A stretch of DNA of 64,000 nt, taken from the NCBI GenBank assembly GCA_028713575.1, contig JAQTOB010000001.1, positions 27,619-91,618 of the forward strand. Direction: 5' to 3'. The first letter of the stretch is position 1, and every line of letters starts with the position of its first letter. Source of the DNA: Patescibacteria group bacterium. Its GTDB lineage: Bacteria > Patescibacteriota > Patescibacteriia > UBA2591 > UBA6264. Below the pieces are notes generated by a model, which did not search any database, was not told where the DNA came from, and saw only the letters and a list, made by a program, of their open reading frames with translations. The position numbers were made by a program, and so were the translations under genes. Shown in pieces: positions 5,619 to 55,735 of this stretch.

Positions 5619-6516
5619 ATATATGCGATTTTTAAAATTAGCTATCCAAAATTTTTTTCGAAATTTCTGGCTAAGCATCACCAGTATTATTATTATGCTT
5701 TTAATGTTATTTTGCTTAAGTCTCTTATATAACTTCAATGTTATTGGTCAACAAATAATGGTTTCTTTAAAAGACAAAATGGACCTGGGTGTTTATTTAA
5801 ACCAAAATATTGACCAAAATAAAACTGCTCTTTTAATCTCAGAATTAGAAAATATGGAAGAAATTAAAAAATTGGATTTTTTTTCTCCGGAGCAATCATT
5901 AGAAAATTTTAAGGATAAACATCAAAACGACTCTTTAATTTTAAGGTCTTTGGAAACATTAAACGAGAATCCTTTTGGCGGACTGATAACCATAAAATTT
6001 CATAACCCGACGGATTATCAAAAAATAATTTCAGTTATTGAAAAACCCGTTTATCAATCCCTTATTCAAGAACAAAATTTTTATGACTACCAAAACCTGA
6101 TTCACGATTTCAATGCTATTAGTCAAAAAATAACGCAAGCTGGAATTAGTATCAGCGTTTTATTTTCCCTAATTACCGTCTTAGTAATTTTTACAACTAT
6201 TAAACTGGGAGCGCTTTCTCGGCAAAAAGAAATCAAAATTATGAGATTGGTGGGGGCTTCGGCTCACGCTATTCGTCGGCCGTTTCTGATTGAGGGCGGT
6301 TTATACGCTGGTATTTCATGGATTTTAAACATGGGAATCATTTTTTCCTTAGCTTATTTTTTCCAGCCTCGTTTACAACAATTTCTTGAATTAAATTTTA
6401 ATTTATTTAATTATTTAAAAAACGCTTTTTATTTTTGGGTCGGATTACTCGCCTTTTCTTTAGTTATTTCCCTAATCGGCAGTGGCTTAGCCATTAAAAA
6501 ATATTTGAAACTTTAA
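5596..6516 (+). CDS. ftsX: FtsX-like cell-division/ABC permease protein; the true start is probably the ATG at 5623
   Basis: Four TM segments, a large periplasmic loop and the motif MRLVGASAHAIRRPFLIEGGLYAG. The tracked start overlaps the aspS stop. Confidence 0.7.
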   Translation: MKLKRKNKYMRFLKLAIQNFFRNFWLSITSIIIMLLMLFCLSLLYNFNVIGQQIMVSLKDKMDLGVYLNQNIDQNKTALLISELENMEEIKKLDFFSPEQSLENFKDKHQNDSLILRSLETLNENPFGGLITIKFHNPTDYQKIISVIEKPVYQSLIQEQNFYDYQNLIHDFNAISQKITQAGISISVLFSLITVLVIFTTIKLGALSRQKEIKIMRLVGASAHAIRRPFLIEGGLYAGISWILNMGIIFSLAYFFQPRLQQFLELNFNLFNYLKNAFYFWVGLLAFSLVISLIGSGLAIKKYLKL

Positions 6517-6518
6517 AA

Positions 6519-7526
6519 ATGGATTTAAAAAATTTTAATTATATTCTTCCCGAAGAACTAATTGCTCAAACCTCCGCTAAGCCTCGAGATCATTCGAGGC
6601 TGATGATTTTAAACAAAAAAAAACAATCAATCAGTCACGACTTTTTCTTTAATTTAAAAAATTATCTGCCCAAAAATAGTATTTTGGTGGCTAATAATTC
6701 TCGGGTTCTCCCGGCCCGTCTATACGGAACTAAACCAACGGGTGGGAAAATCGAAGTTTTGCTCTTGAAAAAATTCAAGGGAAACGCTTGGCAAGCAATG
6801 ATTGGCGGAAAAGCGTCTCTGGGAATGCAAATATCTTTTAATAAAAATTTAAAAGCAACTATTTTGAAAAAAGAGCATCAATTAGGAATAATGAAATTCA
6901 ATCAAACAACGAAAAATTTCTTAAAAATCCTGGACAAATTAGGACAAGCCCCTACTCCTCCCTATATTAAAAGAATTTCTAATTTGAGAGAATATCAAAC
7001 AATTTACGCTAAAAAAATCGGTTCAGTCGCTGCCCCGACTGCTGGTTTTCATTTTACGAAAAAATTGATTAAAAATTTAGAGAAAAACGGATTTCAATTT
7101 TCGTTTATTACCTTGCATGTCGGATTGGGAACATTTCAACCAGTCAGTGAAAAAAAAATTGAGAATCACCGCATACATCCCGAAAAAGTTCAAGTGTCCT
7201 TAAAAACAGCAAAAATTCTCAATAAAGCAAAAAAACAAAATCAAAAAATAATTGCCATCGGTACCACTAGTGGCCGAGCATTGGAATCGTTTGTTAAAAA
7301 TAAAAAATTGCTCTATGGCAAAAAAGAAACAAAAATCTTTATTTATCCGGGATATAAATTCAAATTTATTGACGGTTTAATCACCAATTTTCACCTGCCT
7401 AAATCAACCCTCTTAATGATGGTTTCCGCTTTAGCCGGACAATCTTTGGTCCAAAAAGCATACCGACAAGCTATTAAAAAAAAATATCGTTTCTATTCAT
7501 TTGGTGATGCTATGTTAATTATCTAA
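6519..7526 (+). CDS. queA: S-adenosylmethionine:tRNA ribosyltransferase-isomerase
   Basis: N-terminus MDLKNFNYILPEELIAQTSAKPRDHSRLMIL; length and motifs match QueA. Confidence 0.85.
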   Translation: MDLKNFNYILPEELIAQTSAKPRDHSRLMILNKKKQSISHDFFFNLKNYLPKNSILVANNSRVLPARLYGTKPTGGKIEVLLLKKFKGNAWQAMIGGKASLGMQISFNKNLKATILKKEHQLGIMKFNQTTKNFLKILDKLGQAPTPPYIKRISNLREYQTIYAKKIGSVAAPTAGFHFTKKLIKNLEKNGFQFSFITLHVGLGTFQPVSEKKIENHRIHPEKVQVSLKTAKILNKAKKQNQKIIAIGTTSGRALESFVKNKKLLYGKKETKIFIYPGYKFKFIDGLITNFHLPKSTLLMMVSALAGQSLVQKAYRQAIKKKYRFYSFGDAMLII

Positions 7527-7626
7527 AGATTTTAAACAAAACGCAGTCCCGCGCCATCCGCAGGATTGGTGCGTAGATATTTATTTGGTGATATCATGCT
7601 AATATCATTCAAACGTTAAGTTTAAA

Positions 7627-7654
7627 TTGACTAATTTGATAATTTTGTTATATT
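7627..7654 (+). promoter_or_regulatory. candidate sigma70-type promoter for tRNA-Cys: TTGACT, a 16-nt spacer, then TATATT
   Basis: A near-consensus -35/-10 pair ends about 20 nt upstream of the mature tRNA 5' end. Confidence 0.35.
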
Positions 7655-7674
7655 ATCAATATAATTGAGAGAGG

Positions 7675-7747
7675 GGCCAGGTAGCCAAGTGGCAAAGGCA
7701 AGGGTCTGCAAAACCCTTATACAGGGGTTCGATTCCCCTCCTGGCCT
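7675..7747 (+). tRNA. tRNA-Cys (anticodon GCA)
   Basis: Cloverleaf with acceptor stem GGCCAGG/CCTGGCC, anticodon loop CTGCAAA and T-loop TTCGATT; no CCA is encoded. Confidence 0.85.
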
Positions 7748-7789
7748 TTTCCAATTTTCTCTAAAATTGTGAGCCAACAAAGACAAAAC

Positions 7790-8065
7790 AATTTTAGTAA
7801 GAAAGTTGAGAACCCCGCCCTTATTTTACCTTTTTGAAGATAAATATCGCTAATTTTGATTTATTGTTTTAACGCTCGCAGTGCAGTAAGGTCCTTGACG
7901 AAATTAAAATGCATTGCCTCACATTATCTTGTAAAGTAAGGCGGGGCGTTGTGTTTAACACAACTAAAAATAGAAAGGCAACCCACGCTCTAATTTTACG
8001 GATTAAAACAAGGGCGGCAAACTCGCCTTTGGCGAGGTCCTATTCGGACACTTTGCCGCAAAAGT
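7790..8065. ncRNA. candidate structured non-coding RNA of unassigned class in a GC-enriched intergenic region
   Basis: About 370 bp lack any ORF and are markedly GC-richer than their surroundings. Long-range complements (CCCCGCCC...GGCGGGGCG) and a nested hairpin (GCGGCAAA-CTCGCC-TTT-GGCGAG...TTTGCCGC) are present. No tmRNA, RNase P or SRP signature motifs were found. Confidence 0.25.
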
Positions 8066-8174
8066 AAAAAAAGAAAAAATTATTTAAAAATAAATATATA
8101 AATGGTAAAATTAGAGCGGGGTGCTCATAAATCTAACAAATTTTTATTCACTTCGTTCTAAAAATTTGAGATTT

Positions 8175-9125
8175 ATGGCAAAACTTATTCTTATAGACGC
8201 TCAAGCTGTTCTCCATCGCGCTTGGCACGCTTTACCCAAACTGACTGATTCTCATGGCCAAGTGATTAATGCTGTTTATGGATTTTCTTCTCTTTTATTA
8301 AAACTTATTAATGAACAAAACCCTGATTATTTGGTTGTGGCTTTTGACACTAAGGCGCCCACTTTTCGTCATCAAGAATATAAAGAATATAAAGCCGGCA
8401 GAGAAAAACAGCCAGCGGAATTCTACGACCAAATTCCTTTGAGTAAAAAAATTGTTGAAGCCTTTGGTCTTCCTATTTTTATTAAAGAAGGATTTGAGGC
8501 CGATGATTTAATCGGCGCCGTTATCCAGTCGCAAAAAAAGAAAAATCCGAAAATAGAGTCCTTGATTGTCAGTGGTGACCTTGATCTGTGTCAACTGGTT
8601 GGTCCCCGGACTTCTGTTTATTATCTCCGGCAAGGGTTGTCTCAAATAAAAATTTATGATCTTAAGGCGGTTAGAGAACGGTTTGAATTAGAACCAGAAC
8701 AGTTAATTGATTTTAAGGCTTTAAGGGGCGACCCTTCCGACAATATCAAAGGAATGACGGGCATTGGTCCGAAAATCGCTTTAAAATTAATTAAAAATTT
8801 TAAAACTCTGGACAATCTTTATGAGTATTTGGAAAATTGCTTTAATAAAGGAAGAAAATGTGAAATCAAACAATCTTTAGCGGAAAAGCTCTGGCAAAAT
8901 AAAGAACAAGTTCTTCGCGATAAAAGATTGGTAACAATTCAAAAAAATATTCCCGGACTGGAAGCTGAAAAAATAAAAAAAATTAATTTTGACTATAAAA
9001 AAATAAATAAAATTTTTGAAGAGTTTGGGTTTAAAAGTTTAATAAAAAGATTAATGAAAAATCATTCAAATCAATCTGTAATAAAAACAAACTTAATTAC
9101 CTGCAAACAGAACAAATTATTTTAA
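8175..9125 (+). CDS. standalone 5'-3' exonuclease (FEN/Pol I N-terminal-like, PIN plus H3TH)
   Basis: MAKLILIDAQAVLHRAWHALP..., EGFEADDLIGAV and a GIGPKIALKLI H3TH motif. The tracked ORF starts at 8121, but the ATG at 8175 matches the family N-terminus. Confidence 0.8.
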   Translation: MAKLILIDAQAVLHRAWHALPKLTDSHGQVINAVYGFSSLLLKLINEQNPDYLVVAFDTKAPTFRHQEYKEYKAGREKQPAEFYDQIPLSKKIVEAFGLPIFIKEGFEADDLIGAVIQSQKKKNPKIESLIVSGDLDLCQLVGPRTSVYYLRQGLSQIKIYDLKAVRERFELEPEQLIDFKALRGDPSDNIKGMTGIGPKIALKLIKNFKTLDNLYEYLENCFNKGRKCEIKQSLAEKLWQNKEQVLRDKRLVTIQKNIPGLEAEKIKKINFDYKKINKIFEEFGFKSLIKRLMKNHSNQSVIKTNLITCKQNKLF

Positions 9126-9281
9126 CCCCTCGCCCCTTAATCACAATGTGCCCGTAAATCGGAATATGTATAAAACCAAAAAATAATTTAAAGATTTTTT
9201 GAATAATTTAATCAATTTAAATCGCTGCAAAATCATTGCTCTATATTTGAAAGTGATTTCGCCGTAATTAAAAAGTAAGAA

Positions 9282-10343
9282 ATGATTATTTTTCTTTACG
9301 GAAAAGACGCTTATCGTTCCAAGCAAAGACTAAATGTCTTAAGGGAAGAATTTATGAGGAAAAAAGACAAAAAGGGTCTAAATGTTTGTATTTTTGAAGC
9401 CCATGAATTATCTCTTGATGAGTTGAGAAAATCCTTTTTAAGCGCTGGTCTTTTCTCAGAAAAAAGACTGATGATTATAAAAAATATCTTATTGGCAAAA
9501 ACGGCAAAAAAAGATGGGGAAAGTCGCCCCGTCCCGTCCCCTCTGCAAACAGGTGGCAACCCGCCGGAAAGGCAAAAAATTCTGTTTGAAGAAATTATTA
9601 AAATTTTAAAAAAAAACAAAAAAGATGAAGATTTCCCCGCACAGACAAAAAATGTCATTATTTTTTGGGACGAAGAGGTTAATGAAAAAAAATTAAATTC
9701 TTTTCAAAAAAAAATATTTATTCTTTTAAAAAAAGAGAGGTTTTGTGAAGAATTCAAATTATTAAATGCCGTTGAATTAAAAAAATGGATTAAAAAAAGA
9801 GTTAATAATCAAGGTTTTAAAATTGACGAACAATCTTTAACGCTATTAATTAACGCTTTTGGCAATAATCTTTGGCTGTTAAATAATGAGTTGGAAAAGC
9901 TAATGGCCTGGAAAATAACAAAAAAAGAAATTGTTTTTTCTGACCTGCAAAAATTTGTTTTCCCCGGACTGGAACAAAATATTTGGAAACTGGTTGATTC
10001 TTTGGGTCAAAAAAATAAGGCCCTGGCTTTAAAAATTCTTTCAGACCAATTTAAACAAAATGTTGATGTAGCTCAAGTTATTACCCTTCTTGCTCATCAA
10101 TATAGAACAATTATCAGAATAAAATCTTATTTAGAAAAAAATCCAATAAATAATCCTTATCAGTTGGCTAAAATCTTGTCTCTTCATCCCTTTGTGTGCC
10201 AAAAAGCTGTGGCTCAAGAAAAAAATTACAACCTTAATCAATTAAAAAAGACCTATCAGCAATTACTGAAAATAGATCTTTGGCGGAAAACTAAGAATAT
10301 TGACTCGGAAACTCTTTTAGATTTGTTAATTGCCAAATCCTGA
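9282..10343 (+). CDS. holA: DNA polymerase III delta subunit
   Basis: MIIFLYGKDAYRSKQRL N-terminus, and the length and helical C-terminal domain are typical of HolA. It carries a GC-rich in-frame insertion (DGESRPVPSPLQTGGNPPERQ). Confidence 0.65.
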   Translation: MIIFLYGKDAYRSKQRLNVLREEFMRKKDKKGLNVCIFEAHELSLDELRKSFLSAGLFSEKRLMIIKNILLAKTAKKDGESRPVPSPLQTGGNPPERQKILFEEIIKILKKNKKDEDFPAQTKNVIIFWDEEVNEKKLNSFQKKIFILLKKERFCEEFKLLNAVELKKWIKKRVNNQGFKIDEQSLTLLINAFGNNLWLLNNELEKLMAWKITKKEIVFSDLQKFVFPGLEQNIWKLVDSLGQKNKALALKILSDQFKQNVDVAQVITLLAHQYRTIIRIKSYLEKNPINNPYQLAKILSLHPFVCQKAVAQEKNYNLNQLKKTYQQLLKIDLWRKTKNIDSETLLDLLIAKS

Positions 10344-10610: not shown

Positions 10611-10700
10611 AATAGTGAACTTAAAAATCAAAAATCAAAATGAAAAATAATAATATAAATAAATTTAAAATTTCTCCTAATTTTAATGCTGTTCCGTTTT

Positions 10701-17258: not shown

Positions 17259-17344
17259 ATTTTCTCGCCAATGCTCAGTCAAATGCAAAATATAAATTTC
17301 AAAATGCAAAATGACAATGTAAAAATTTTTTAAATTTTAAACTT

Positions 17345-17593
17345 TTATGGTTCGTCCCATCCTCCCTTGGCCCAAGGATGACAACGAAAAACTCTTCCAA
17401 CTGCTTTAATCCCTCCCTTTATGAGTCCGTATTTCTCAATGGCCTGATAGGCATATTCCGAACAAGTCGGCTGAAACTTACAGACACCGGGCCAAGGATG
17501 TAACAAAGAAAACGGTCCATGGTCGGGAGAAAGTGTTTTTTGATAAAGACGAATTAATTTTAAAACCAACAGCTTTAACCAAGTAAATGCCAT
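17345..17593 (-). CDS. yidD: membrane protein insertion efficiency factor YidD
   Basis: FQPTCSEYAYQAIEKYG...FRCHPW. Confidence 0.85.
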   Translation of the reverse strand: MAFTWLKLLVLKLIRLYQKTLSPDHGPFSLLHPWPGVCKFQPTCSEYAYQAIEKYGLIKGGIKAVGRVFRCHPWAKGGWDEP

Positions 17594-18079: not shown

Positions 18080-18307
18080 AGGCGCTCCACTAAATTTAAA
18101 ATTAAAAAATCAAAAATCAAAATGACGTATTAAAAAACAAAAATTTCTTTAATTTCTATTTTACGTTTCAATTTTTAAGTTTATTATATCACAAATATTT
18201 AAATTAGCCCAGTGTGTATTAATTTTGCTATCATATAGATATTGGACACCTAATCTTATGGTTTCTATGCCGTGCTTCATGTTTCAATGTTGCTGTGTTC
18301 TAATGGT

Positions 18308-23166: not shown

Positions 23167-23238
23167 TAGCCCCGAGGAGAATCGAACTCCTGTTACCAGG
23201 ATGAAAACCTGGTGTCCTAACCACTAGACGACGGGGCC
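23167..23238 (-). tRNA. tRNA-Glu (anticodon UUC), intact
   Basis: The minus strand reads GGCCCCG TC GTCT...CCAGG TTTTCAT CCTGG TAAC AGGAG TTCGATT CTCCT CGGGGCT A, a full cloverleaf. Confidence 0.85.
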
Positions 23239-23244
23239 TTAATA

Positions 23245-23499
23245 TTATTTCAAATTGAATCCTAACTTATTAAGCAAATTTTTTCTTTCTTGATAATATT
23301 TTTTTAACCTTATTTCCCTTTTCCTTGCTTCTGATTTACTATCATACTCCTCCCTATACATCATAATAAACGGTCTTCTGTTTTTATTGGATTTTGTTTT
23401 GCCGGCGTTATGCTCTTTTAATCTTTTTCCAATGTCATCAGTCATACCAATATAATAACCTGAATCCTTTAAACTTTTTAGGATATATAAATAATACAT
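23245..23499 (-). CDS. small free-standing GIY-YIG nuclease
   Basis: MYYLYILKSLKDSGYYIGMTDDIGKRLKEHNAG...; the GIY..YIG...R..H/N motif lies in an 84-aa protein. The tracked ORF 23245..23589 extends spuriously into tRNA-derived and GC-rich insert sequence. Confidence 0.75.
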   Translation of the reverse strand: MYYLYILKSLKDSGYYIGMTDDIGKRLKEHNAGKTKSNKNRRPFIMMYREEYDSKSEARKREIRLKKYYQERKNLLNKLGFNLK

Positions 23500-23500
23500 A

Positions 23501-23603
23501 CTCCTGTTACCAGGATGCCCGCCAGGGGCAGCCTGTCCGCCTACTGGCGGAGGTCCGCCTTTGGCGGAAAAACCTGGTGTCCTAACCACTAGACGACGGG
23601 GCC
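23501..23603 (-). pseudogene. duplicated 5' two-thirds of tRNA-Glu interrupted by a ~50-bp GC-rich insertion
   Basis: Identical to the intact copy from the acceptor 5' end through the variable region (GGCCCCGTCGTCTAGTGGTTAGGACACCAGGTTTT ... CATCCTGGTAACAGGAG). The T-arm and 3' acceptor are missing. The insert 23518..23567 begins CCCGCC and ends GGCGG. Confidence 0.6.
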
Positions 23604-27185: not shown

Positions 27186-27203
27186 ACTATTTCGACTACT
27201 CGG
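27186..27203. repeat. degenerate partial copy (TATTTCGACTACT) of the palindrome-bearing repeat, 3' of the transposase gene
   Basis: Shares ATTCGACTACT with the repeats at 27828 and 29151. Confidence 0.35.
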
Positions 27204-27204
27204 A

Positions 27205-27807
27205 TTAAATAAATCTTTCGTTCTTAATAAATTTCGGCTTTGGGGGATTTTTGGATTCCTCTTTAACAAATTCTATATAATCCTGACGAAGTCCTTCTAT
27301 CTCTCTTTCTCCGCTATATTCCAAAAAACGATTTCTATCAATTAAATCATCATTGTATTCCTTTTGAAAATAAACCGAAAAACTGCTCCAAAGATAATCT
27401 TCTAATTTTTTACAAAGCCCCGCCCGTAAAGCATTCAGATCAATATAGGCGCTAACCGCCCAAAAATAAGATTCTGTATTTATTAGAGAGGCATAAAATC
27501 TATCCTGAAATAAATGGCCCTTTCTTTTATATCTTCTATTAAAATATCCTGCATAATAACTATTAATGTAATGCATTATCTTGGAAACGACAACTTCGCC
27601 GACTTCTACGTATAAATGAAAATGGTTTGGAAGTAAATTATAGGAATAAAGATAAAAACCAAACATTTTTTTTGCCCTTTTCAAAATCGTCAAAAATTTC
27701 TTATAATCCTGTGGTGCTCGGAAAATACATCGTTGATTAACACCACGACAAACTATGTGATATAAAGCACCATTAGTAATAATTTTTTCCCTTGTTTTTC
27801 GGGGCAT
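27205..27807 (-). CDS. IS200/IS605-family Y1 HUH transposase of the REP-associated (RAYT-like) type
   Basis: ALYHIVCRGVNQRCIF, HUH motif LLPNHFHLYV, YAGYFNRRYKRKGHLFQDRFYASLI and YIDLNALRAGL match the Y1_Tnp / RAYT consensus. Confidence 0.8.
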   Translation of the reverse strand: MPRKTREKIITNGALYHIVCRGVNQRCIFRAPQDYKKFLTILKRAKKMFGFYLYSYNLLPNHFHLYVEVGEVVVSKIMHYINSYYAGYFNRRYKRKGHLFQDRFYASLINTESYFWAVSAYIDLNALRAGLCKKLEDYLWSSFSVYFQKEYNDDLIDRNRFLEYSGEREIEGLRQDYIEFVKEESKNPPKPKFIKNERFI

Positions 27808-27827
27808 TTTATTAAATTAGTCGATAT

Positions 27828-27915
27828 TCGACTACTTTTTAAAAATTGTCTTACAACCCGCTTCTAGTAATGATTTTAGAATGGTATTTTTAGGGGACAG
27901 TCCCCTTTTTATAAA
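27828..27915. repeat. ~90-bp direct repeat, copy A, with two perfect palindromes (AGTCGATATTCGACT and AGGGGACAGTCCCCT)
   Basis: Near-identical to 29151..29248, with 2 to 3 mismatches. It lies 20 bp upstream of the transposase start codon. Confidence 0.8.
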
Positions 27916-27972: not shown

Positions 27973-28935
27973 TTATTTCAAATAGTGATTCAAATTAATC
28001 TCAACAAAAAAATATTTTTCTCCTCTTTTTGCAAGAAAAAATAAAATTCCATTTTTATCGAGTTCAATTGGATAAGCAAAAATCGCACAACAGCTGTTAG
28101 TTCTTATTTCATCAAAATCCCGAGAAATTTTTTGACCATTAAAGAAAAAAAATTTTTTTTCATCTTTTTCACCTACGAATCCTATATTGTCTTTATATGC
28201 AAATAAATGTGAACTTGCTTCAACTAAATATTTCTCATTGATCGTTTCATCATTATACCAAATATTTCGCTCCACAATTGGCGTATTCTTATCCTTCCAC
28301 TCCTTGAGATCGTAAAAAGTGAATGCGGGTGAATTTAGTATCATGCTTGCATCTTCAATAACACTTTCCGCTCCGAAATACATTTTATGGGAAAAAATTT
28401 CTTGCTCATTTTTAAAAATAGAATAATTGTCGTCGCCTTTGATGTTTCCAATAGTATAAACGTCCTTACTAAAACCATAAGATTCTGCTGTTTGTTTAAT
28501 ATTAATATTATTTATTAAATCTTTTCTAAATTCAGGGTTAATTATTAAACACCAATTATCTGGACCACATTCAGCCACTTTAAATTCCGGTGGTAGATTA
28601 TTTTTATATGCTTGCAAGCCAACTATTGAACAATTATCTTTTGTGCCATTTCTACATTCAATTTTGTATTGCAAGTGATACATTGGCGTTCGTCCCTGGA
28701 TTTCATGATTTTGGTTATACCAAAAATTTTTTCCTTGTTTTTGAAGTCGGGTTATTTCTTTTCTGATTAGTGTGAAAATATCATCAACGGTTTCACTTGT
28801 AAGAGTTGTTTCTATTTCATGGTAAATTTGAGATTGGCTATCAACGGGAATTTTATTTTCCCTGTTTTCAATTTGAGAGGTCGTGCACCCCGCTAAAAAA
28901 AATCCCATTATCAGTAGAAAAAAATATTTCTCCAT
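27973..28935 (-). CDS. hypothetical lipoprotein flanked by the direct repeats
   Basis: Signal peptide plus lipobox (LLIMGFFLAGC); cysteine-containing, with no recognisable domain. Confidence 0.6.
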   Translation of the reverse strand: MEKYFFLLIMGFFLAGCTTSQIENRENKIPVDSQSQIYHEIETTLTSETVDDIFTLIRKEITRLQKQGKNFWYNQNHEIQGRTPMYHLQYKIECRNGTKDNCSIVGLQAYKNNLPPEFKVAECGPDNWCLIINPEFRKDLINNINIKQTAESYGFSKDVYTIGNIKGDDNYSIFKNEQEIFSHKMYFGAESVIEDASMILNSPAFTFYDLKEWKDKNTPIVERNIWYNDETINEKYLVEASSHLFAYKDNIGFVGEKDEKKFFFFNGQKISRDFDEIRTNSCCAIFAYPIELDKNGILFFLAKRGEKYFFVEINLNHYLK

Positions 28936-29150
28936 AAATGTTTAATTGGTTTTATTTATATTATAAGCGAACTTTTTTATTTTGCTTAACGTCAGGAACC
29001 TCCGAAGTTTTTTTGGAACGAAGTAAAAGAAAAATTCGGGAAAATTGCAAGCTGAACAATTTTTCTTTTATCCCTTGTTATGCAAATTTAAACTATTTAA
29101 ACTAAATCGTATTGTATTACATATTTGAGAAACAACCCCTTTTGGTCCCG

Positions 29151-29248
29151 TAGTCGATATTCGACTATTTTTTAAAAATTGTCTTACAACCCGCTTCTAG
29201 TAATGATTTTAGGATGGTATTTTTAGGGGACAGTCCCCTTTTTATAAG
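29151..29248. repeat. ~90-bp direct repeat, copy B, followed by a short 3x tandem repeat GTCCC(C)TTTTTAT at 29235..29285
   Basis: Copy B carries the same two palindromes as copy A. Confidence 0.8.
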
Positions 29249-29373
29249 TCCCCTTTTTATTGAAGGTCCCTTTTTATTGAAGTAATATTGACTTCTCGTT
29301 GCCTATTAAACGAATTTTAAGTATAATGTCTTTGCTTCTTAAGTTTACCACTCTTAAAATAACAGGCAATATT

Positions 29374-29832
29374 ATGTCAATTACCCCAACCTATTCGGAA
29401 AAACAAACATTTGATTTAGGTAAAAAATTCGCGGAAAAACTCCAAGGCGGAGAAGTTATCGGTTTAACCGGCGATTTAGGCGCGGGAAAAACCGTATTCA
29501 TTAAAGGTTTAGCAAAAGGACTGAAAATTGAACAAATTATCAACAGTCCGACATTTGTTTTGATGAAATTATACAAAATCAATTCAAAATTCAAAAATCA
29601 AAATGCAAAATTACAATGCAAAATTCAAAATTTAGTTCATGTAGACGCCTATCGTTTAAATTCTAGTCAAGAATTAATTAACGTTGGCATTGAAGATTAT
29701 CTGGAAAAGAAAAATGCGATTGTTGTGATTGAATGGGGGGAAAAAGTGAAAGATATTTTGCCAAAAGACAAGATTTCTGTTAAAATAAAGTTTGGGGGGA
29801 AAAAAAATGAAAGAGTAATAAGAATAAAATAA
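29374..29832 (+). CDS. tsaE: tRNA threonylcarbamoyladenosine biosynthesis protein TsaE (P-loop ATPase) with a low-complexity in-frame insertion
   Basis: GEVIGLTGDLGAGKTVFIKGLAKGL...INSPTFVLMKLY[KINSKFKNQNAKLQCKIQN]LVHVDAYRL. The start is placed at the ATG at 29374, downstream of a TATAAT at 29322; the tracked start 29299 lies inside the repeat. Confidence 0.8.
   Translation: MSITPTYSEKQTFDLGKKFAEKLQGGEVIGLTGDLGAGKTVFIKGLAKGLKIEQIINSPTFVLMKLYKINSKFKNQNAKLQCKIQNLVHVDAYRLNSSQELINVGIEDYLEKKNAIVVIEWGEKVKDILPKDKISVKIKFGGKKNERVIRIK
29575..29640. repeat. AT-rich 'caaaat(g/c)caaaat' repeat element lying inside the tsaE coding sequence
   Basis: aaatcaattcaaaattcaaaaatcaaaatgcaaaattacaatgcaaaattcaaaattt; the same motif family as 17281..17340, 52075..52170 and 54915..55012. 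Confidence 0.6.
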
Positions 29833-29928: not shown

Positions 29929-32532
29929 GTGAAAACAATGGATAAACAATACGAGCCAAAAAATTGCGAAACGAAAATTTACGAACTCTGGGAAAAGAGC
30001 GGATTTTTTAATCCAGACCGACTACCGGGCAAAAGAAGAAAAAAATATTCTATTTCCATCCCTCCGCCCAACATCACCGGTTCCCTGCATATGGGACACG
30101 CCCTGAATAACACAATTCAGGACATTTTAACCCGCTACTACCGCCTGCGGGGCAAAAAAACTCTTTGGTTGCCGGGAATTGATCATGCCGGCATTGCCAC
30201 CCAAAACGTGGTAGAAAAGAAAATCTCTAAAGAAGGATTGACTCGCCATCAACTCGGCCGAGATAAATTTATAGAAAGAGTCTGGCAGTGGAAGGAAAAA
30301 TATGGCAACCTAATCTTAGAACAATTAAAAAAACTTGGTTGTTCCTGTGATTGGTCTCGGAGTAGATTCACCTTGGACAAAGAATACGAACAGGCCGTAC
30401 AAACCGCTTTTATCAATTATTACAAAAAAGGCTACATCTACCGGGGTCCTCGGATCGTCAACTGGTGTCCCCGTTGCGCCACGGCTATCTCCGACATTGA
30501 AGTGAAATACCAAGAAGAAAAAGGTGCCTTGTGGTATATTAAATACCCGTTGCTTGAAAATTCCAAATTCCAATTTCCAAATTCCAAACAATATCTAAAT
30601 TCAAAACCTAAAATCCAAAAATTTATTACGGTAGCGACTACTCGACCAGAAACAATGCTGGGAGATGCGGCCGTGGCCGTGAATCCCAAGGAAGAAAGAT
30701 ATAAAAAGTTAGTCGGCCAAAAAGTTATCTTGCCAATAATGAACCGCGAGATTCCTATTGTCGCCCATCGTTTAGTTGATCTTAATTTTGGCACTGGCGC
30801 CTTAAAAATCACGCCAGCTCATGATAAAACCGACTGGCAGATTGGCAAAGAAAATAATCTAGAAATAATCAATGTTATTGGTCCTGACGGAAAAATGTCA
30901 AAAGAGGCGGGAAAATATGAAGGCCTCTCAACTCTTGAGGCCAGAAAAAAAATCATCGCCGAACTGGAAATCTTGGGTCTTTTGGAAAAAACCGAAGAAT
31001 ACGAGCATCAAATCTCCCTGTGTGATCGCTGTCATACTCCAGTCGAACCGCAAATTTCTACCCAATGGTTCGTTCAAATGGAAAAATTAGCCCAACCGGC
31101 GATTAAAGCGGTTAAAAACAATAAAATAAAAATTATTCCCGAACGATATAAAAAGGTATATCTTGATTGGTTAAATAACATTGAAGATTGGTGCATTTCT
31201 CGCCAGCTCTGGTGGGGACACCGTTTGCCAATTTGGCTCTGCCAAACAGCAAACAAAATTAAAAATCCCTGCCTGTCCGGCAGGCAGGAAAAATTAAAAA
31301 TCAAAAACATTAATAACGATTATGTTGTTTCGGCGACTCGACCAAAAAAATGCCCATTCTGCGGACAATGCGAGATGAAACAATCGGAGGACGTATTAGA
31401 CACCTGGTTTTCTTCTGCTCTTTGGCCATTCGCTACTTTGGGCTGGCCAATCGCTTGCGCTCAAAATAAAAAATCAAAAATAAAAATTAAAAAATATTGT
31501 AAACCAATTCGCGGTACCGATTTAGACAAATTTTTTCCGACTTCTCTTTTATCCACCGACCGCGGAATCCTTTATCTTTGGGTGGCGAGAATGGTTTTCT
31601 CAAGTTTGGAATTTTTAAAAAAAATACCCTTTAAAACCGTTTACATTCACGCCACTATTCTCAATCCGGAGGGCCGACGAATGAGTAAGTCGCTGGGAAC
31701 GGGCATTGACCCCTTGGGCTTAATTGATAAATACGGCGCCGACGCGGTCCGCCTCGGTCTAATAATCCAAACCAACCGCGACCAGCAGGCCATCCGCTTT
31801 GATGAAAGAACGATTTTGGCGGCCAGAAATTTTGTGAATAAGCTCTGGAACATAAGTCGTTTTATTGAAATTTCAACAAAACAAATCCAAGATTCTAAAT
31901 CAGAAATCCAAAACAAGTCCAAGATTCTAAACTCAAAAATCAAAACATTAACTCTATCGGACAGATGGATACTTAGCCGCTTAAATTCCGTTATTGATTC
32001 AATAACAAAAAAAATCGCCGATTATCAATTCGGCGAAGCGGGGCAAGAACTTTATGAATTTGTTTGGCATGAATTTGCCGATTGGTATTTAGAAATCAGT
32101 AAATTTCAAATGGCGGAAAAAAAATTAAAAAATAACACCATTTATTGTTTAAAATTTATAATTTATAATTTATTAAAACTCCTTCATCCTTTTATTCCTT
32201 TTGTCACTGAAGAAATCAACATTCATCTTAATAATTTGACCATAGAAAAAAATGGGGTTTTGCCAGAGAAAGCAATGGAACAATTTAGTCAGTTATTGAT
32301 AGTGGCAAACTGGTCCGCCGTGAAAAGAAAATACATAAATAAAAAGATTGAATCTCAATTTGAGAAAATAAAAAAAATTGTGGCTGAAATCAGGAACTGG
32401 AAATCAGAACAGAAAATTCCTTTTAATCAGGAAGTGGAATACCAAATTCAAAAAGAAGAAAAAAATCTTTTAATCATTAAAGAGGTAAAAACCCTGGTAG
32501 AACAAATGACCAAAACAAAATTGATTTCTTAA
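29929..32532 (+). CDS. valS: valyl-tRNA synthetase with several low-complexity in-frame insertions
   Basis: HIGH motif (PPPNITGSLHMGHALNN), KMSKS motif (RMSKSLG) and the zinc knuckles of the editing/CP1 region. Insertions lie at about 30551..30625, 31261..31320, 31465..31500 and 31875..31950. Confidence 0.9.
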   Translation: MKTMDKQYEPKNCETKIYELWEKSGFFNPDRLPGKRRKKYSISIPPPNITGSLHMGHALNNTIQDILTRYYRLRGKKTLWLPGIDHAGIATQNVVEKKISKEGLTRHQLGRDKFIERVWQWKEKYGNLILEQLKKLGCSCDWSRSRFTLDKEYEQAVQTAFINYYKKGYIYRGPRIVNWCPRCATAISDIEVKYQEEKGALWYIKYPLLENSKFQFPNSKQYLNSKPKIQKFITVATTRPETMLGDAAVAVNPKEERYKKLVGQKVILPIMNREIPIVAHRLVDLNFGTGALKITPAHDKTDWQIGKENNLEIINVIGPDGKMSKEAGKYEGLSTLEARKKIIAELEILGLLEKTEEYEHQISLCDRCHTPVEPQISTQWFVQMEKLAQPAIKAVKNNKIKIIPERYKKVYLDWLNNIEDWCISRQLWWGHRLPIWLCQTANKIKNPCLSGRQEKLKIKNINNDYVVSATRPKKCPFCGQCEMKQSEDVLDTWFSSALWPFATLGWPIACAQNKKSKIKIKKYCKPIRGTDLDKFFPTSLLSTDRGILYLWVARMVFSSLEFLKKIPFKTVYIHATILNPEGRRMSKSLGTGIDPLGLIDKYGADAVRLGLIIQTNRDQQAIRFDERTILAARNFVNKLWNISRFIEISTKQIQDSKSEIQNKSKILNSKIKTLTLSDRWILSRLNSVIDSITKKIADYQFGEAGQELYEFVWHEFADWYLEISKFQMAEKKLKNNTIYCLKFIIYNLLKLLHPFIPFVTEEINIHLNNLTIEKNGVLPEKAMEQFSQLLIVANWSAVKRKYINKKIESQFEKIKKIVAEIRNWKSEQKIPFNQEVEYQIQKEEKNLLIIKEVKTLVEQMTKTKLIS
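31268..31288. repeat. GC-rich palindrome CCTGCCTGTCCGGCAGGCAGG embedded in AT-rich repeat flanks, inside valS
   Basis: A second copy (CCTGCCTGCCGGCAGGCAGG) lies intergenically at 52112..52131, with the same caaaat-type flanks. Confidence 0.6.
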
Positions 32533-35171: not shown

Positions 35172-35300
35172 AATGGTCGCTTTACTTCAAACCCTAATTT
35201 CTAATTTCTAAACTCTAAATAATATTCTGAATTCTAAATTTAAAAACTAAAATTCAAAATCACTTTTTCCAAATTTCACTTTTTAGAATTTTAGGATTTG
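35172..35300. repeat. AT-rich degenerate 'ctaa(a/t)tt / aaaattcaaaat' repeat tract in the intergenic region downstream of the ATP-cone nuclease gene
   Basis: ctaatttctaatttctaaactctaaataatattctgaattctaaatttaaaaactaaaattcaaaatc; the units are degenerate and there are no unique spacers. Confidence 0.5.
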
Positions 35301-50795: not shown

Positions 50796-52097
50796 TTATA
50801 TCTCCTTTTTTAAAAGACGCAAGAAAATATTTTTATCTTTAATCGGCCCAATTAATGAAATATTAATATTTTTGAAAATATCTTGAGCGACGTTTTGAAT
50901 ATCTTTTCTTTGAACTTTTCTCATTTTCGCCAATTTTTCTTTCGGGGTAAAAATTTTTCCGGTTAATAGTATTTGTTTGGCATACCATCCGGCTAAATTG
51001 GCCGAATCTTCTAAATAAAGTCCAGTTGACCCTTCAATATAATCCTTTGCTCTTATTAATTCCTCTTTTGTCACTCCTTTATCTTTTATTTTTTTAAGTT
51101 CTTTTAATATAACTTCCACTGCTTCCTGTGTTTTGTTTTTATCAACGCCGGCAAAAATGCCATAATTACCAATGTCTTGATAAATATCAAAATCCGCGTT
51201 AATGGCATAGGCCAACCCCCTTTTGACCCTTACTTCTGTAAATAAACGCGAACTCATATTCCCACCCAAAATAACTAACAATAATTTAAGGGCTTCTATT
51301 TTGGGATGATTGTAATGATAGGCCAAGCCGCCCAAAGCAATCTGTGTTTGTTTTAAGTCTTTAAATAAAATTTTAACTTTATCTTTAATTTTTATTTTTT
51401 TGCGATTAAAAATTTTAAAACTTCCTTGTTTTTTTGCTCCGTGATATGGGGCAAAATATTTTTTCATTAAATTTATAACTTGCAACTTGTCTACGCCCCC
51501 GGAAATGGCGACAACCATTTGATGCGGTTGATAAAAAATTTTTTTATATGCTAATAATTTTTGGCGATTCATTTTTTTAACATCGCTTAATTGTCCGCTG
51601 ATTAATTGACCAAGGGGATGATTTTGATAAATAGTATTTTCAAAAAAATCATTAATATATAATAAAGGATTTTCTTGATACATTTTAATTTCTTCTAAAA
51701 TTACTCCCTTTTCTTGGCAAAACTCCTTTGCCTTAAAAAGCGAATTAAAAAGCATATCTGATAAGACGTTTAAGGCCGTTTCCATTTTATTATTAACCGT
51801 TTTTATCCAATAACCCGTATGGTCTTTTCCGGTGAAGGCGTTATAATTAGCGCCAATTCCATCCAATTCTTGAGCAATAGCCAGGCTAGTCGGACGTTTT
51901 TTTGTTCCTTTAAACATCATATGCTCTATAAAATGCGAAGCTCCATGCAGTTTTAAAGATTCGTGCCGAGACCCTGCCGGCAATAAAACTAAGGCCGTAA
52001 TTGTTTTGGAATTATTTTTAGGAATAATTACTAATTTTAAACCATTGGAAAGTTTTGTTTGATAATACATAGTCGCTTCGCTAAATTCAAAATGCAA
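50796..52097 (-). CDS. M16 (pitrilysin/insulinase-like) zinc peptidase
   Basis: Inverted zinc motif HFIEHMMFKGT (HxxEH). Confidence 0.8.
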   Translation of the reverse strand: MHFEFSEATMYYQTKLSNGLKLVIIPKNNSKTITALVLLPAGSRHESLKLHGASHFIEHMMFKGTKKRPTSLAIAQELDGIGANYNAFTGKDHTGYWIKTVNNKMETALNVLSDMLFNSLFKAKEFCQEKGVILEEIKMYQENPLLYINDFFENTIYQNHPLGQLISGQLSDVKKMNRQKLLAYKKIFYQPHQMVVAISGGVDKLQVINLMKKYFAPYHGAKKQGSFKIFNRKKIKIKDKVKILFKDLKQTQIALGGLAYHYNHPKIEALKLLLVILGGNMSSRLFTEVRVKRGLAYAINADFDIYQDIGNYGIFAGVDKNKTQEAVEVILKELKKIKDKGVTKEELIRAKDYIEGSTGLYLEDSANLAGWYAKQILLTGKIFTPKEKLAKMRKVQRKDIQNVAQDIFKNINISLIGPIKDKNIFLRLLKKEI

Positions 52098-52170
52098 AAA
52101 TTAAAATGTAACCTGCCTGCCGGCAGGCAGGAATGACAATTTAAAATTCAAAATAAACTCAACTTTTAAT
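52075..52170. repeat. composite repeat: AT-rich caaaatgcaaaa units, the GC palindrome CCTGCCTGCCGGCAGGCAGG, then further AT-rich units
   Basis: ctaaattcaaaatgcaaaaattaaaatgtaaCCTGCCTGCCGGCAGGCAGGaatgacaatttaaaattcaaaata; a paralogous copy lies inside valS at 31261..31320. Confidence 0.6.
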
Positions 52171-52173
52171 TTT

Positions 52174-53739
52174 TTATTCTAATTTTTCTTTTAAATACCC
52201 GGTTAACTCTGCTATAGCCACTCTTTTCTGTTTCATTGTGTCGCGGTCCCTGATAGTCACTTTTTTGTCTTCCAAGCTTTCAAAGTCTATTGTTAAACAA
52301 TATAAAGTGCCGATTTCATCTTGGCGACGATATCGCCGACCGATTGATCCAACCTCGTCATATTGAGCCGTCCAATATCTTTTAATCTCTCTAGATATGT
52401 CGCGCGCTAATTTTGTTAATTTCTCTTTTTTTGCTAAAGGTAAAATCGCAATTTTAATCGGGGCCAAATCTTTATGCAGATGCAAAACAACTTCTGTTTC
52501 TTTATTTGATTCTGTGGTGGTTGTTCGGCCACCGCCAATTTCTTCATAAGCATCTATAAAAAAGGCCAATAATGGCCGGTCCACGCCGGCCGAAGGTTCA
52601 ATAACATAAGGAATAAATTTCTTCCCATTTTCATCGCGACTAAATAAATTTTCTCCTGAAAATTTGCCATGTTGTTTCAAATCAAAATCACCCCGATTAG
52701 CAATGCCCTCCAGTTCCGACCAATTAAAGGGAAATTTATATTCCACATCTGAACAGGCCTGGGCATAATGAGCTAATTCATTCTTTTTATGCTCTCTAAG
52801 TCTAAGGTTCTCTTTTTTTATTCCTAATTTTACATACCAATCTAATCTTTCTTTTAACCAATATTGATGCCATTTTTTTGCCTCTTGAGGATGAACAAAA
52901 AATTCTAATTCCATTTGTTCAAACTCTCTGGTTCGAAAAATAAAATTGCCCGGCGTGATTTCATTACGAAACGATTTGCCGATTTGGGCGATTCCAAAAG
53001 GAATTTTTGTCCTAGAAGATTGTAAAACATTATTGAAATTAACGAAAATTCCTTGAGCCGTTTCCGGTCTAAGATAAGTTTTTTGAGCCGTTGCCTGCAC
53101 TGGTCCAATACTGGTGGACAACATAAGATTTGCTGAAGTCGGTTCAGAAAGCGCTTCTCCGCACAAAGGACAAGGAATAGCCGCCAGACCATCGGCTGAG
53201 GCAGCTATTCTGCCAATAAAATTTCTAAAATCCAAATCCGTCTGTTTAAATGTTTTATGAATATCACTAATCCAAGAAAGCGTTACTTCAGGTCTCAAGA
53301 CAAGCGCCAAATTAGGTGCTAAATCTTTTCCCTTAGTTTTCGCCCAGTTAAAAAGATCTTTGCTTGTTTTATGCCCTGCCATATCCTTTAATAATGACTG
53401 CCACCAATCGCCGTTCCAAATAAGATCATAAATTTGATCGCCGCGAAACTGCTTTTTACAAAAAGGACAAGAATAAAATGGATCTTTAAAACCGGCGACA
53501 TGACCGCTAGCTTCCCAAACTTTTGGATTGAGTAAAATCGCGCTATCAAGTCCGACTACATCTTCCCTTTCCTGGACTACTTTTTTCCACCAGGCTTTTT
53601 TAATATTATTTTTCAGTTCAACTCCTAGGGGGCCGTAATCATAACAAGAACCCAGCCCGCCGTAGATTTCCGAGGACCGAAAAATGAAACCGCGGCGCTT
53701 ACACAAAGAAACTATTTTTTCCATTAAATTTTGATTCAT
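52174..53739 (-). CDS. glyQS: glycyl-tRNA synthetase, dimeric archaeal/eukaryote-like type
   Basis: MNQNLMEKIVSLCKRRGFIFRSSEIYGGLGSCYDYGPLGVELK... Confidence 0.85.
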   Translation of the reverse strand: MNQNLMEKIVSLCKRRGFIFRSSEIYGGLGSCYDYGPLGVELKNNIKKAWWKKVVQEREDVVGLDSAILLNPKVWEASGHVAGFKDPFYSCPFCKKQFRGDQIYDLIWNGDWWQSLLKDMAGHKTSKDLFNWAKTKGKDLAPNLALVLRPEVTLSWISDIHKTFKQTDLDFRNFIGRIAASADGLAAIPCPLCGEALSEPTSANLMLSTSIGPVQATAQKTYLRPETAQGIFVNFNNVLQSSRTKIPFGIAQIGKSFRNEITPGNFIFRTREFEQMELEFFVHPQEAKKWHQYWLKERLDWYVKLGIKKENLRLREHKKNELAHYAQACSDVEYKFPFNWSELEGIANRGDFDLKQHGKFSGENLFSRDENGKKFIPYVIEPSAGVDRPLLAFFIDAYEEIGGGRTTTTESNKETEVVLHLHKDLAPIKIAILPLAKKEKLTKLARDISREIKRYWTAQYDEVGSIGRRYRRQDEIGTLYCLTIDFESLEDKKVTIRDRDTMKQKRVAIAELTGYLKEKLE

Positions 53740-53776: not shown

Positions 53777-55012
<1,236 letters not shown>

Positions 55013-55735
55013 TTATTCAAGACGCCAATAAAAAAATTCCTTCAAAATTTTATCTGCCATTAAAAAATTTTTGTATTCAAAGTCCTGATTAATCAAACTG
55101 TCAAAATCGCGATAAAGCAATTTTTGTAAAATATTTAGAACTTCTTGACTAATTTTAGTCCCTTTTGTTTCTGTGTCTAATTCTAATTTATGTTTTAAGC
55201 AAATTATTCCTCCCTTCTTCGGACTAAAAATAATTTCTTTTCCCTTAGGAATTTTGTTGCAAAACAAACATTTTTTTATTTCAGGACAATAACCCAAAAA
55301 CGCCAAAAATTTAATTAAAAAGGCATTGCTGATAAACATGGTTTTCTGTTCTGATAAATAATTGATTTTTTCCAAAAATTTTAATATTAACGAAAAAATT
55401 TTCTGGTCAGATTGAGTTTTAATCAATTGATCTATTCTTCTAAACAAATTATTGACTTGTATCGTTTTTCTGTTGCTTTTAAATATCCCTTTAAATGATT
55501 TTTTCACCGCGCCGCCAATCAAATGAAAATTATTTCGCCCGGAAACGACCACTAAGTCCAATAAAGCGAATGGTTCAGCAACGATCGGGGCCAATTTGGA
55601 ATTGATTTTTCGTCCACCGCGCATTAAAATTTCAACTTTCCCCTCCTCTTGACTATAAAAAAAAATTATTTGATCATTTTCTCGGTAATTTTCTTTTTTA
55701 AAAACGATTCCGGACAAATGTCGTGTATTTGACAT
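55013..55735 (-). CDS. recO: DNA repair protein RecO
   Basis: N-terminal OB-fold pattern and a C-terminal zinc finger (CLFCNK...CLKH). Confidence 0.65.
   Translation of the reverse strand: MSNTRHLSGIVFKKENYRENDQIIFFYSQEEGKVEILMRGGRKINSKLAPIVAEPFALLDLVVVSGRNNFHLIGGAVKKSFKGIFKSNRKTIQVNNLFRRIDQLIKTQSDQKIFSLILKFLEKINYLSEQKTMFISNAFLIKFLAFLGYCPEIKKCLFCNKIPKGKEIIFSPKKGGIICLKHKLELDTETKGTKISQEVLNILQKLLYRDFDSLINQDFEYKNFLMADKILKEFFYWRLE

Follow-up and report, generated by a model that had tools for sequence, protein, structure and literature searches.

Very small palindromic mobile DNA is, as a kind, already known: repetitive extragenic palindromes (REPs) with their REP-associated tyrosine transposases (RAYTs), short dispersed repeats (SDRs), Rickettsia palindromic elements (RPEs) and organelle GC clusters all belong to it. 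Very short palindromic repeats--REPs, SDRs and organelle GC clusters among them--are common, and their way of moving is mostly unknown. The SDR1-8 families of Nostoc and its relatives, reportedly described by Elhai and colleagues in 2008, are said to be 21-27-nt hairpin units that often lie in tandem heptamers, that nest within each other, and that insert precisely without duplication. They are also said to have been proposed as the smallest mobile elements, to be confined to one cyanobacterial group, and to have no associated enzyme. A precise insertion of SDR5 into HIP1 is on record (PMC4390886), and the REP superfamilies are defined by a GTAG or CGTC tetranucleotide at one end (PMC3733652). 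Here a 64,000-nucleotide stretch of contig JAQTOB010000001.1 from a Patescibacteria group bacterium (termed here the window) is analyzed, which contains two copies of a palindrome, termed P, that is CCTGCCTG(T)CCGGCAGGCAGG and that is 20 nt long, or 18 or 21 nt long within genes. P is a discrete, sequence-specific family that occurs unchanged across many bacterial phyla and phage contigs, and one clade of mini GIY-YIG nuclease cassettes linked to tRNA genes has it as its signature hairpin. It looks to be among the smallest mobile DNA elements that are known.

The two copies, their host and neighboring genes and the A-rich arrays that adjoin them are as follows.

31268-31288, no strand assigned: 21-nt copy of P (CCTGCCTG-T-CCGGCAGGCAGG, i.e., CCTGCCTGTCCGGCAGGCAGG) in valS, in frame (PCLSGRQ); a precise, lineage-specific insertion.
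52112-52131, no strand assigned: 20-nt copy of P (CCTGCCTGCCGGCAGGCAGG) in the spacer between glyQS and the M16 peptidase gene; on the minus strand, a terminator-like hairpin and then TTACATTTTAATTTTT.
29929-32532, plus strand: valS (valine-tRNA ligase), host of the 21-nt copy, with four A-rich low-complexity inserts that are indel-polymorphic among relatives.
52174-53739, minus strand: glyQS (glycine-tRNA ligase), upstream of the spacer copy on that strand.
50796-52073, minus strand: M16 peptidase gene, downstream of the spacer copy on that strand.
31255-31267, plus strand: A-rich heptamer-array unit (AAAATTAAAAATC) that borders the valS copy on the left; in relatives L158/L160, where the site is empty, it directly adjoins the right unit.
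31289-31307, plus strand: right neighbor of the valS copy, heptamer array AAAAATC x2.7 (Tandem Repeats Finder), present in the empty site.
52083-52111, plus strand: A-rich array to the left of the spacer copy (taaattcaaaatgcaaaaattaaaatgtaa).
52132-52157, plus strand: A-rich array to the right of the spacer copy (aatgacaatttaaaattcaaaataaa).

A preliminary description of this DNA had reported two near-identical GC palindromes, and both are confirmed at these positions; they are the strongest of only about 8 GC-rich perfect hairpins in 64 kb of roughly 33% GC. Its judgment that they are unlikely to have arisen by chance is likewise borne out, inasmuch as none of 100 dinucleotide-preserving shuffles of the window yielded a match to P and P belongs to a dispersed family. 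A search of the window that allowed up to three mismatches found no further copy. As RNA, P forms an 8-bp stem with a CCGG loop. The spacer copy lies 42 nt past the glyQS stop codon and about 38 nt ahead of the M16 peptidase start, and both copies have similar flanks in the same orientation: GCAAA(C)AAAATTAAAA on the left and AA(T)TTAAAA(A)TCAAAA on the right. A separate observation is that a motif, GGAATGACAA, recurs directly after GC hairpins in unrelated genomes (L014, L047, L076) and likewise follows the spacer copy, at 52132-52140 (aggAATGACAAt).

Comparison of filled and empty sites indicates what it is that inserts. The nearest ValRS sequence (P0001, 96% identical, on a 517-kb contig) shares the seven residues encoded by the valS copy; in a protein alignment the next relative (P0002, 77%) has an exact gap of seven codons, reading IKN-QKLKI versus IKN-PCLSGRQ-EKLKI in the window. 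In a DNA alignment, valS of the 77% relatives (L158/L160) reads GAAATTAAAAATC|AGAAATTAAAAATC, with the array complete and a gap of exactly 21 nt, and subtracting the palindrome from the window's valS leaves ATT AAA AAT CAA AAA TTA AAA ATC, that is, IKNQKLKI. Because the relatives show an intact array together with an exact 21-nt gap, the hairpin alone is the insert and the A-rich array is its target. The valS copy is bracketed by a direct repeat of 12-13 nt, but the empty site already has this repeat, so that it does not represent a target-site duplication; duplication is rejected on this ground and on the finding that most copies elsewhere have no flank repeat. The valS insertion is thus exact to the base, with no target-site duplication and with no target bases lost. 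(More distant ValRS sequences lack even the segment that bears the array.) The spacer copy is identical in a same-species contig (L161), and is absent from the orthologous glyQS-M16 spacers of L162 and of L163/L164, relatives at 81% and 74% GlyRS identity, respectively. Both window copies are recent lineage-specific insertions, and the earlier suggestion that the palindromes behave as very small mobile or insertional DNA is thereby supported. The valS copy was assembled independently three times, namely in the window, in a contig from JGI and in one from Logan, and the 96% relative has it in two assemblies besides the window's; this, together with the presence of P in cultured isolates, excludes an assembly artefact. 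In valS, the copy lengthens a variable part of the protein by seven residues, and the spacer copy may double as a terminator-like hairpin after glyQS; both are probably near-neutral passengers.

Three further observations concern these genes and their relatives. Within valS, the stretch at about 31450-31690, including an A-rich insert that encodes IACAQNKKSKIKIKKYCKP, is nearer to the 77% relative than to the 96% relative, in which the insert is absent; this looks like a recombination tract, with valS a mosaic. The window's GlyRS has 521 aa; many of its relatives in Patescibacteria have about 440 aa and can be aligned to just 64% of it. It thus carries an insertion of about 80 aa, which a subset of relatives has as well. 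Finally, the 96%-identical relative L156 has, at 7123-9440, about 2.6 kb extra between a 320-aa open reading frame (ORF) and tsaE, as compared with about 28950-29300 in the window. This extra segment encodes an HNH endonuclease, an 85-aa protein and a phage-type integrase, none of which occurs in the window.

Part of what had been proposed is that further AT-rich members of the same element are scattered through the window. The AT-rich sites do exist, as degenerate tandem arrays with a 7-nt period (AAAAATC, AAATGCA, AATTCAA, AAATTCC, CTAAATT), and they are in excess: the window contains 16 period-7 arrays, whereas 30 Markov-2 simulations gave 2.2 on average and never more than 5. They lie directly upstream of minus-strand start codons and also within coding sequence (four in valS and one in tsaE, the latter translated and conserved in one relative). 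Those not listed above are the following.

29581-29632, plus strand: longest heptamer array, AATTCAA x7.6, in tsaE, translated.
10623-10648, 17281-17347, 18105-18122, 30558-30588, 31463-31496, 35194-35260 and 54936-55015: other heptamer arrays.

Their units differ in sequence, however, and they lack defined ends, so that the sites are real but do not constitute one element: the arrays are heterogeneous and microsatellite-like rather than copies of a single unit with defined termini.

Outside the window, P is widespread. In a scan that covered each GTDB species by one genome, at least 120 genome stretches contained the exact 20/21-mer. GTDB assigns their hosts to Patescibacteria, Bacteroidota, Omnitrophota, Planctomycetota, Proteobacteria, Nitrospirota and others; they include the cultured Bacteroidota Winogradskyella, Flagellimonas, Longitalea and Flavivirga. 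Among IMG/VR viral contigs, 35 stretches contain P, and some contigs carry 3-6 copies. The palindrome first seen twice is thus present in far more than two copies, spread over many phyla and viral contigs. Because a perfect 20-nt palindrome has only ten free positions, composition-matched controls were run: three control palindromes with the same half-site composition gave 0, 0 and 0 matches versus 35 for P. The centers of related hairpins point in the same direction. Stems of the form CCTGCCTG...CAGGCAGG and stems with the arms swapped are both common; among the matches listed, the centers of the former are dominated by CCGG (40), CG (16) and one-base variants of CCGG, and the latter have diverse 6-8-nt loops with no dominant center. 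Since only the CCTGCCTG...CAGGCAGG stems have a dominant center, P constitutes a discrete family, with 16-, 18-, 20- and 21-nt forms. Chance occurrence of generic GC hairpins (i.e., convergent terminators) is rejected on both the control counts and these loop spectra. A literature search found no paper containing the P sequence.

Other short palindromes were seen in the same loci. A second dispersed 16-nt GC palindrome, TCCGCCAGCTGGCGGA, is present in five P loci (L014, L019, L021, L038, L047) and resembles the hairpins of Glu-type cassettes, the window's included; another exact 16-nt GC palindrome, CCCGATAGCTATCGGG, is present in P loci L061, L072, L082 and L085. Both recur across different genomes, sometimes within 30 nt of P, which suggests that several ultra-short hairpin families share hosts.

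Flanks and neighbors were counted for 164 unique copies of P from other genomes. Base counts over 10 positions on each side of 143 copies revealed no conserved tetranucleotide beside P; the sole flank signal is that position -1 avoids T. About 85-90% of the 164 copies have no flank repeat, so that there is no general target-site duplication. About 10% of copies sit in register inside heptamer arrays of genome-specific sequence: 7-nt in-register flank repeats were found for 11 copies versus 0.4 expected. Similarly, P lies at the center of longer palindromes (stems of at least 8) 4 times versus 0.16 expected, and the same nesting of P within P was found in two unrelated genomes (L023, L049). Length depends on location: in loci below 50% GC, 7 of 17 copies of 21 nt lie in long ORFs versus 10 of 87 copies of 20 nt (Fisher p=0.007). 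An 18-nt variant, CCTGCCTGCGCAGGCAGG, lies inside ileS of L162 (the relative at 81% GlyRS identity) at 5849-5866, with flanks ATTTAGA and AGATTTAGA. Because in-gene copies tend to be 18 or 21 nt long and are translated, the reading frame is kept, and the length bias fits selection for frame preservation.

Insertions into tRNA genes provide a second kind of base-precise comparison. In a phage tRNA-Met (L145), P sits in the variable loop: ARAGORN predicts a 92-nt tRNA with an extra arm, and removal of exactly 20 nt restores a canonical 72-nt tRNA. At a second locus (L399) there is a complete second tRNA-Arg that is interrupted only by P in its D-loop, and these two are the only complete tRNAs found to carry P. 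A further observation is that a phage contig related to L145 (L122) has the same insertion but has lost 13 nt of the T-arm beside P; deletions of this kind beside the hairpin may explain many truncated tRNA copies. The idea that P is a hairpin 'intron' of tRNAs, prompted by several copies that come after a tRNA D-loop, was rejected: at those copies, removing P gives no intact tRNA, and what is found instead are partial tRNA copies upstream of GIY-YIG genes. In a search against Rfam, the window has only three tRNAs at the gathering score and nothing better than E=0.16 around position 52112.

The link to GIY-YIG nucleases emerged from the neighbors of P. A clue from ORF clustering was that three loci (L070, L044, L152) have a small GIY-YIG ORF directly after P. 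A GIY-YIG ORF lies within 150 nt of P for 5 of the 164 copies, versus about 0.6 expected (p about 5e-4). Metagenome contigs were then fished with the protein alone; that is, P itself was not in the query, though three of its five proteins had been taken from P loci. This yielded 457 relatives, and 80 loci were retained. Of these 80 loci, 29 carry P itself or a form of it with at most three mismatches, and in 21 loci exact P lies 36-115 nt upstream of the GIY-YIG ORF, a density of about 125 exact copies per Mb.

The fished loci share an architecture. An intact tRNA (Glu, Ser, Lys, Leu or Gln) begins 1-44 nt past the stop codon in 37 of the 73 loci with enough downstream sequence, and 25 of those 37 also have, upstream, a partial copy of the same tRNA that is broken by GC hairpins. 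Where the hairpin is P, it is nearly always located either at the 3' edge of the D-loop (GGTA|GAGC, GGATA|GAAT) or 2 nt further in (GGTAGA|GCG), a position that holds across at least six tRNA isotypes. This D-arm site ahead of the nuclease gene is, beyond the window's own genome, the location most typical of P. The module consisting of a P-split tRNA copy and an ORF can repeat in tandem ahead of the intact tRNA, in which case the ORF's stop codon lies within the next tRNA copy. Moreover, hairpin type co-varies with nuclease lineage: 28 of 30 P-type cassettes fall into one protein cluster, and that cluster contains no cassette of the hairpin-pair type. The cassette proteins, about 77-91 aa long, consist of the catalytic domain only, with no separate DNA-binding domain. 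Among solved structures they come nearest to UPF0213 (E=1.8e-17) and SLX1 (E=2.5e-6), the latter a structure-specific endonuclease; the match to I-TevI is far weaker (E=0.007). Annotated phage and plasmid records contained only distant GIY-YIG homologues (below 45% identity) and no instance of the cassette architecture, and a literature search found no paper describing the cassette.

The window has its own cassette of this family, of the hairpin-pair type.

23245-23499, minus strand: small GIY-YIG nuclease ORF, 84 aa (Pfam PF01541, 59.9 bits versus a cutoff of 22.6), tRNA-Glu / hairpin-pair type.
23500-23603, minus strand: partial tRNA-Glu copy, with nt 1-35 at 23603-23569 and nt 36-53 at 23517-23500.
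23568-23518, minus strand: 51-nt block of three GC hairpins (TCCGCCaaaGGCGGA, TCCGCCagtaGGCGGA-CAGG and a third) that splits the anticodon loop.
23167-23238, minus strand: intact tRNA-Glu(TTC), 6 nt past the GIY-YIG stop codon.

The relative L163 has the same cassette layout, with a compensated hairpin (TCCACC/GGTGGA for TCCGCC/GGCGGA), and an L163-like layout also occurs at many metagenome loci. Two side observations concern these cassettes. ORF finders fuse the window's cassette hairpins into an over-long ORF, 23245-23589. In addition, a second 20-nt unit, TCCGCCnnnnGGCGGACAGG, lies at nt 12|13 of a P-bearing pseudo-tRNA-Lys (L413/L415, about 1425-1445), and a unit of this type is also present in the window's tRNA-Glu cassette, at 23531-23550.

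The favored explanation, to which a probability of about 0.55 is assigned, is that P is a self-contained, ultra-short palindromic insertion element, the solo copies of which would be orphan and non-autonomous, spread by a GIY-YIG nuclease. Mechanistically, a structure-specific GIY-YIG nuclease would cut DNA at exposed single-stranded or hairpin-loop positions, and the P hairpin would be copied or ligated into the cut, by a nick-and-ligate or copy mechanism that leaves no duplication. Because P is its own complement, a hairpin from either strand would be the same element. The relationship would parallel that between REPs and RAYTs, with the GIY-YIG enzyme as the mobilizer.

Several findings weigh against this explanation. 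About 97% of genomic P copies have no GIY-YIG gene nearby, and clustering of 2,955 ORFs near P revealed no family common to more than 6 of about 155 loci. The window's only GIY-YIG gene belongs to the other hairpin type (tRNA-Glu, with a TCCGCC...GGCGGA pair), outside the P-linked clade, and the window harbors only 2 copies of P within 64 kb. The figure of 29 of 80 fished loci is biased upward, because three of the nucleases used for fishing were P-adjacent. In tRNA copies, P might just as well serve the cassette as a regulatory hairpin, for which the hairpins upstream of T4 homing endonuclease genes offer a parallel (PMC2988022), or, because the tRNA copy is dispensable, P may merely be tolerated there. 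Lastly, the valS and spacer targets are unlike a tRNA D-arm.

A broader proposal is put forward tentatively, as a possibility that is rather doubtful as it stands: P and its sister hairpins, such as TCCGCCnnnnGGCGGA(CAGG), might be the non-autonomous partners of undescribed selfish mini GIY-YIG (SLX1/UPF0213-like) nucleases. These enzymes, which are structure-specific, would colonize a tRNA gene through duplication of the tRNA's 5' part, and would place 20-nt hairpins, by cut-and-paste or by copying, in loops that are exposed and in A-rich tracts that are single-stranded.

Four other explanations need to be weighed against the favored one. The first, which seems unlikely, is that P is a very small mobile element of the SDR kind and spreads independently of either nuclease (for example, through an RNA or oligonucleotide intermediate and host enzymes), and that its presence in cassettes reflects a preference for the loops of dispensable tRNA copies. 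In size, hairpin form, embedding in heptamers (11 versus 0.4), nesting and location at palindrome centers (4 versus 0.16), P matches the traits reportedly possessed by SDRs, and pseudo-tRNAs also gain a second 20-nt hairpin unit, TCCGCCnnnnGGCGGACAGG. Spread of this kind, however, leaves unexplained both the tracking of hairpin type with nuclease lineage and the very high density of exact P beside GIY-YIG genes, and it offers no candidate machinery.

A second, still less probable explanation is that P is a REP-type element: a RAYT-like protein encoded in the window would recognize the single-stranded hairpin and move it by peel-and-paste without target-site duplication. Y1 transposases (IS200/IS605) do act on hairpins and insert without duplications, which speaks for such an enzyme. 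The protein in question (200 aa, 27205-27807, minus strand) matches Pfam Y1_Tnp with 59 bits, and its best NCBIfam match is REP_Tyr_transpos; the latter score, 64.6 bits, nevertheless falls below the curated cutoff of 80. REPs, too, are found within genes, including tRNA synthetase genes (PMC3733652). But the gene is flanked by a different, GTAG-headed hairpin, GTAGTCGAtatTCGACTAC (at 27818 and 29151), rather than by P, and P has neither a GTAG or CGTC head nor a conserved flanking tetranucleotide. Moreover, a RAYT-like gene lies within 8 kb in only 2 of about 155 P loci; GIY-YIG genes, by contrast, are tightly and positionally tied to P. On the flanking hairpin type, the missing head and the 2 of about 155 loci, RAYT as the main mobilizer was rejected. 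Measured against the class itself, P is a palindromic stem-loop in the 20-40 bp range of REPs, and lacks both the head and a cognate RAYT.

The surroundings of the RAYT-like gene merit description in their own right. The GTAG hairpins GTAGTCGAtatTCGACTAC occupy 27818-27834 and 29151-29167; past the opposite end of the gene, at 27192, there is a half-site, TCGACTAC. An unannotated 320-aa ORF, 27973-28935, for which no Pfam or NCBIfam match was found, is enclosed by a direct repeat of 97 nt (98% identical, at 27818-27914 and 29151-29247). In each repeat copy the GTAG hairpin stands at the start and a terminator-like hairpin, AGGGGACAGTCCCCTTTTT, at the end. After the repeat comes a 17-nt tandem repeat, CCCCTTTTTATTGAAGG x2.9, at 29235-29282.

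Very improbable, and largely refuted, is a third explanation: that the palindromes are functional sequences that arose or were selected in place--as a terminator, an mRNA stabilizer or the site of a dimeric protein--so that their distribution would reflect convergence. On the glyQS strand the spacer copy passes a simple terminator scan (8-bp stem, 6 GC pairs and a T-rich tail, the tail being interrupted: TTACATTTTA), and its region folds somewhat better than shuffles (z=-2.1); GC hairpins are, besides, rare in this genome. Yet the valS copy, with its A-rich tail, lies within an essential coding sequence, a T tail is missing from most copies, control palindromes gave 0 matches versus 35, the swapped-arm stems have no dominant loop, and the empty sites in relatives indicate insertion rather than gradual evolution.

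The fourth explanation, the composite REP- or MITE-like (miniature inverted-repeat transposable element) unit of the preliminary description, with AT-rich 'caaaat' arms around the GC hairpin and hairpin-less members elsewhere, deserves next to no credence: although the two copies have similar, same-oriented flanks and AT-rich arrays recur in the window, the model is refuted by the DNA alignment, in which the empty site keeps the complete array and lacks exactly 21 nt, and array units differ in sequence and have undefined ends, P has quite different flanks in other genomes (with no consistent flanking structure across the 164 copies), and neither a GTAG/CGTC head, nor terminal inverted repeats around a MITE-sized body of about 70-300 bp (the insert being exactly 21 nt, or only 20 nt in the spacer), nor target-site duplications around the copies were found, the valS flank repeat being already there in the empty site.

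If the broader proposal holds, P would be the smallest known mobile DNA common to bacterial phyla and their phages, and part of the protein insertions and heptamer-array dynamics of the candidate phyla radiation (CPR) could be explained. If the link to the nuclease is causal, then it would represent a new hairpin-nuclease partnership, parallel to REP/RAYT and extending across phyla and phages, and a route by which small insertions enter the conserved proteins and tRNA genes of streamlined genomes. The case supplies an exact 20-nt query with which any genome can be searched; filled and empty sites that are defined to the base, both in an essential gene and in a tRNA; and testable candidate enzymes, namely catalytic-domain-only GIY-YIG nucleases with a recurrent architecture at tRNA genes. 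For annotation, P and its variants are a source of error: they make spurious small ORFs (LPAGRQ, PACRQA), split tRNA predictions and lengthen housekeeping proteins.

What appears to be new here is the sequence identity across phyla, the partnership with GIY-YIG nucleases and the split-tRNA-copy architecture. The nearest analogues of P are REP/RAYT, the cyanobacterial SDRs and the GC clusters of mitochondria. The short tandemly repeated repetitive (STRR) heptamers of cyanobacteria, as generally understood, resemble the arrays described here in being degenerate tandem heptamers--here in excess over chance and serving as a landing place for a hairpin--but the window's units are AT-rich and variable, belong to a CPR-type genome and also occur within coding sequence. 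Like the SDRs, as these are reportedly constituted, P is a hairpin of about 20 nt that inserts precisely without duplication, embeds in heptamers and nests; unlike them, it spans many phyla and phages rather than being restricted to cyanobacteria, and it is tied to a nuclease cassette. With the REP/RAYT system it has in common that short (20-40 bp), GC-rich palindromes are dispersed, sometimes in genes, that a cognate hairpin flanks a single enzyme gene and that hairpin type matches enzyme lineage (PMC3733652, PMC3116915). It differs in that P is headless and sits in a partial tRNA copy, in that the linked enzyme is GIY-YIG (SLX1/UPF0213-like) rather than a Y1 HUH enzyme, and in that the sequence of P is the same in different phyla, REPs being species-specific for the most part. 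RPEs likewise are palindromic selfish DNA that is in frame and translated in a small AT-rich genome (PMC3733652), but they are about 100-150 bp long, CGTC-tagged and genus-specific, whereas P is 20-21 nt long and crosses phyla.

Free-standing GIY-YIG homing endonucleases, such as segB of phage T4, are comparable selfish cassettes in which the gene lies among or beside tRNA genes with a hairpin ahead of it (PMC2988022). The T4 Seg proteins, however, have both a DNA-binding and a catalytic domain, whereas the cassette proteins (about 84 aa) have the catalytic domain only and are nearer to UPF0213/SLX1 than to I-TevI. For the duplicated, hairpin-split tRNA copy we know of no counterpart in homing cassettes. 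Finally, the GC clusters of organelles--those of yeast mitochondria, the PstI palindromes of Neurospora and the palindromes of Volvox (as generally known, and PMC2670323)--are also short GC palindromes that spread, often close to tRNA genes, through AT-rich spacers and now and then into genes; they are, however, organelle-specific families that share no sequence, whereas P occurs in bacteria and viruses and is linked with GIY-YIG cassettes.

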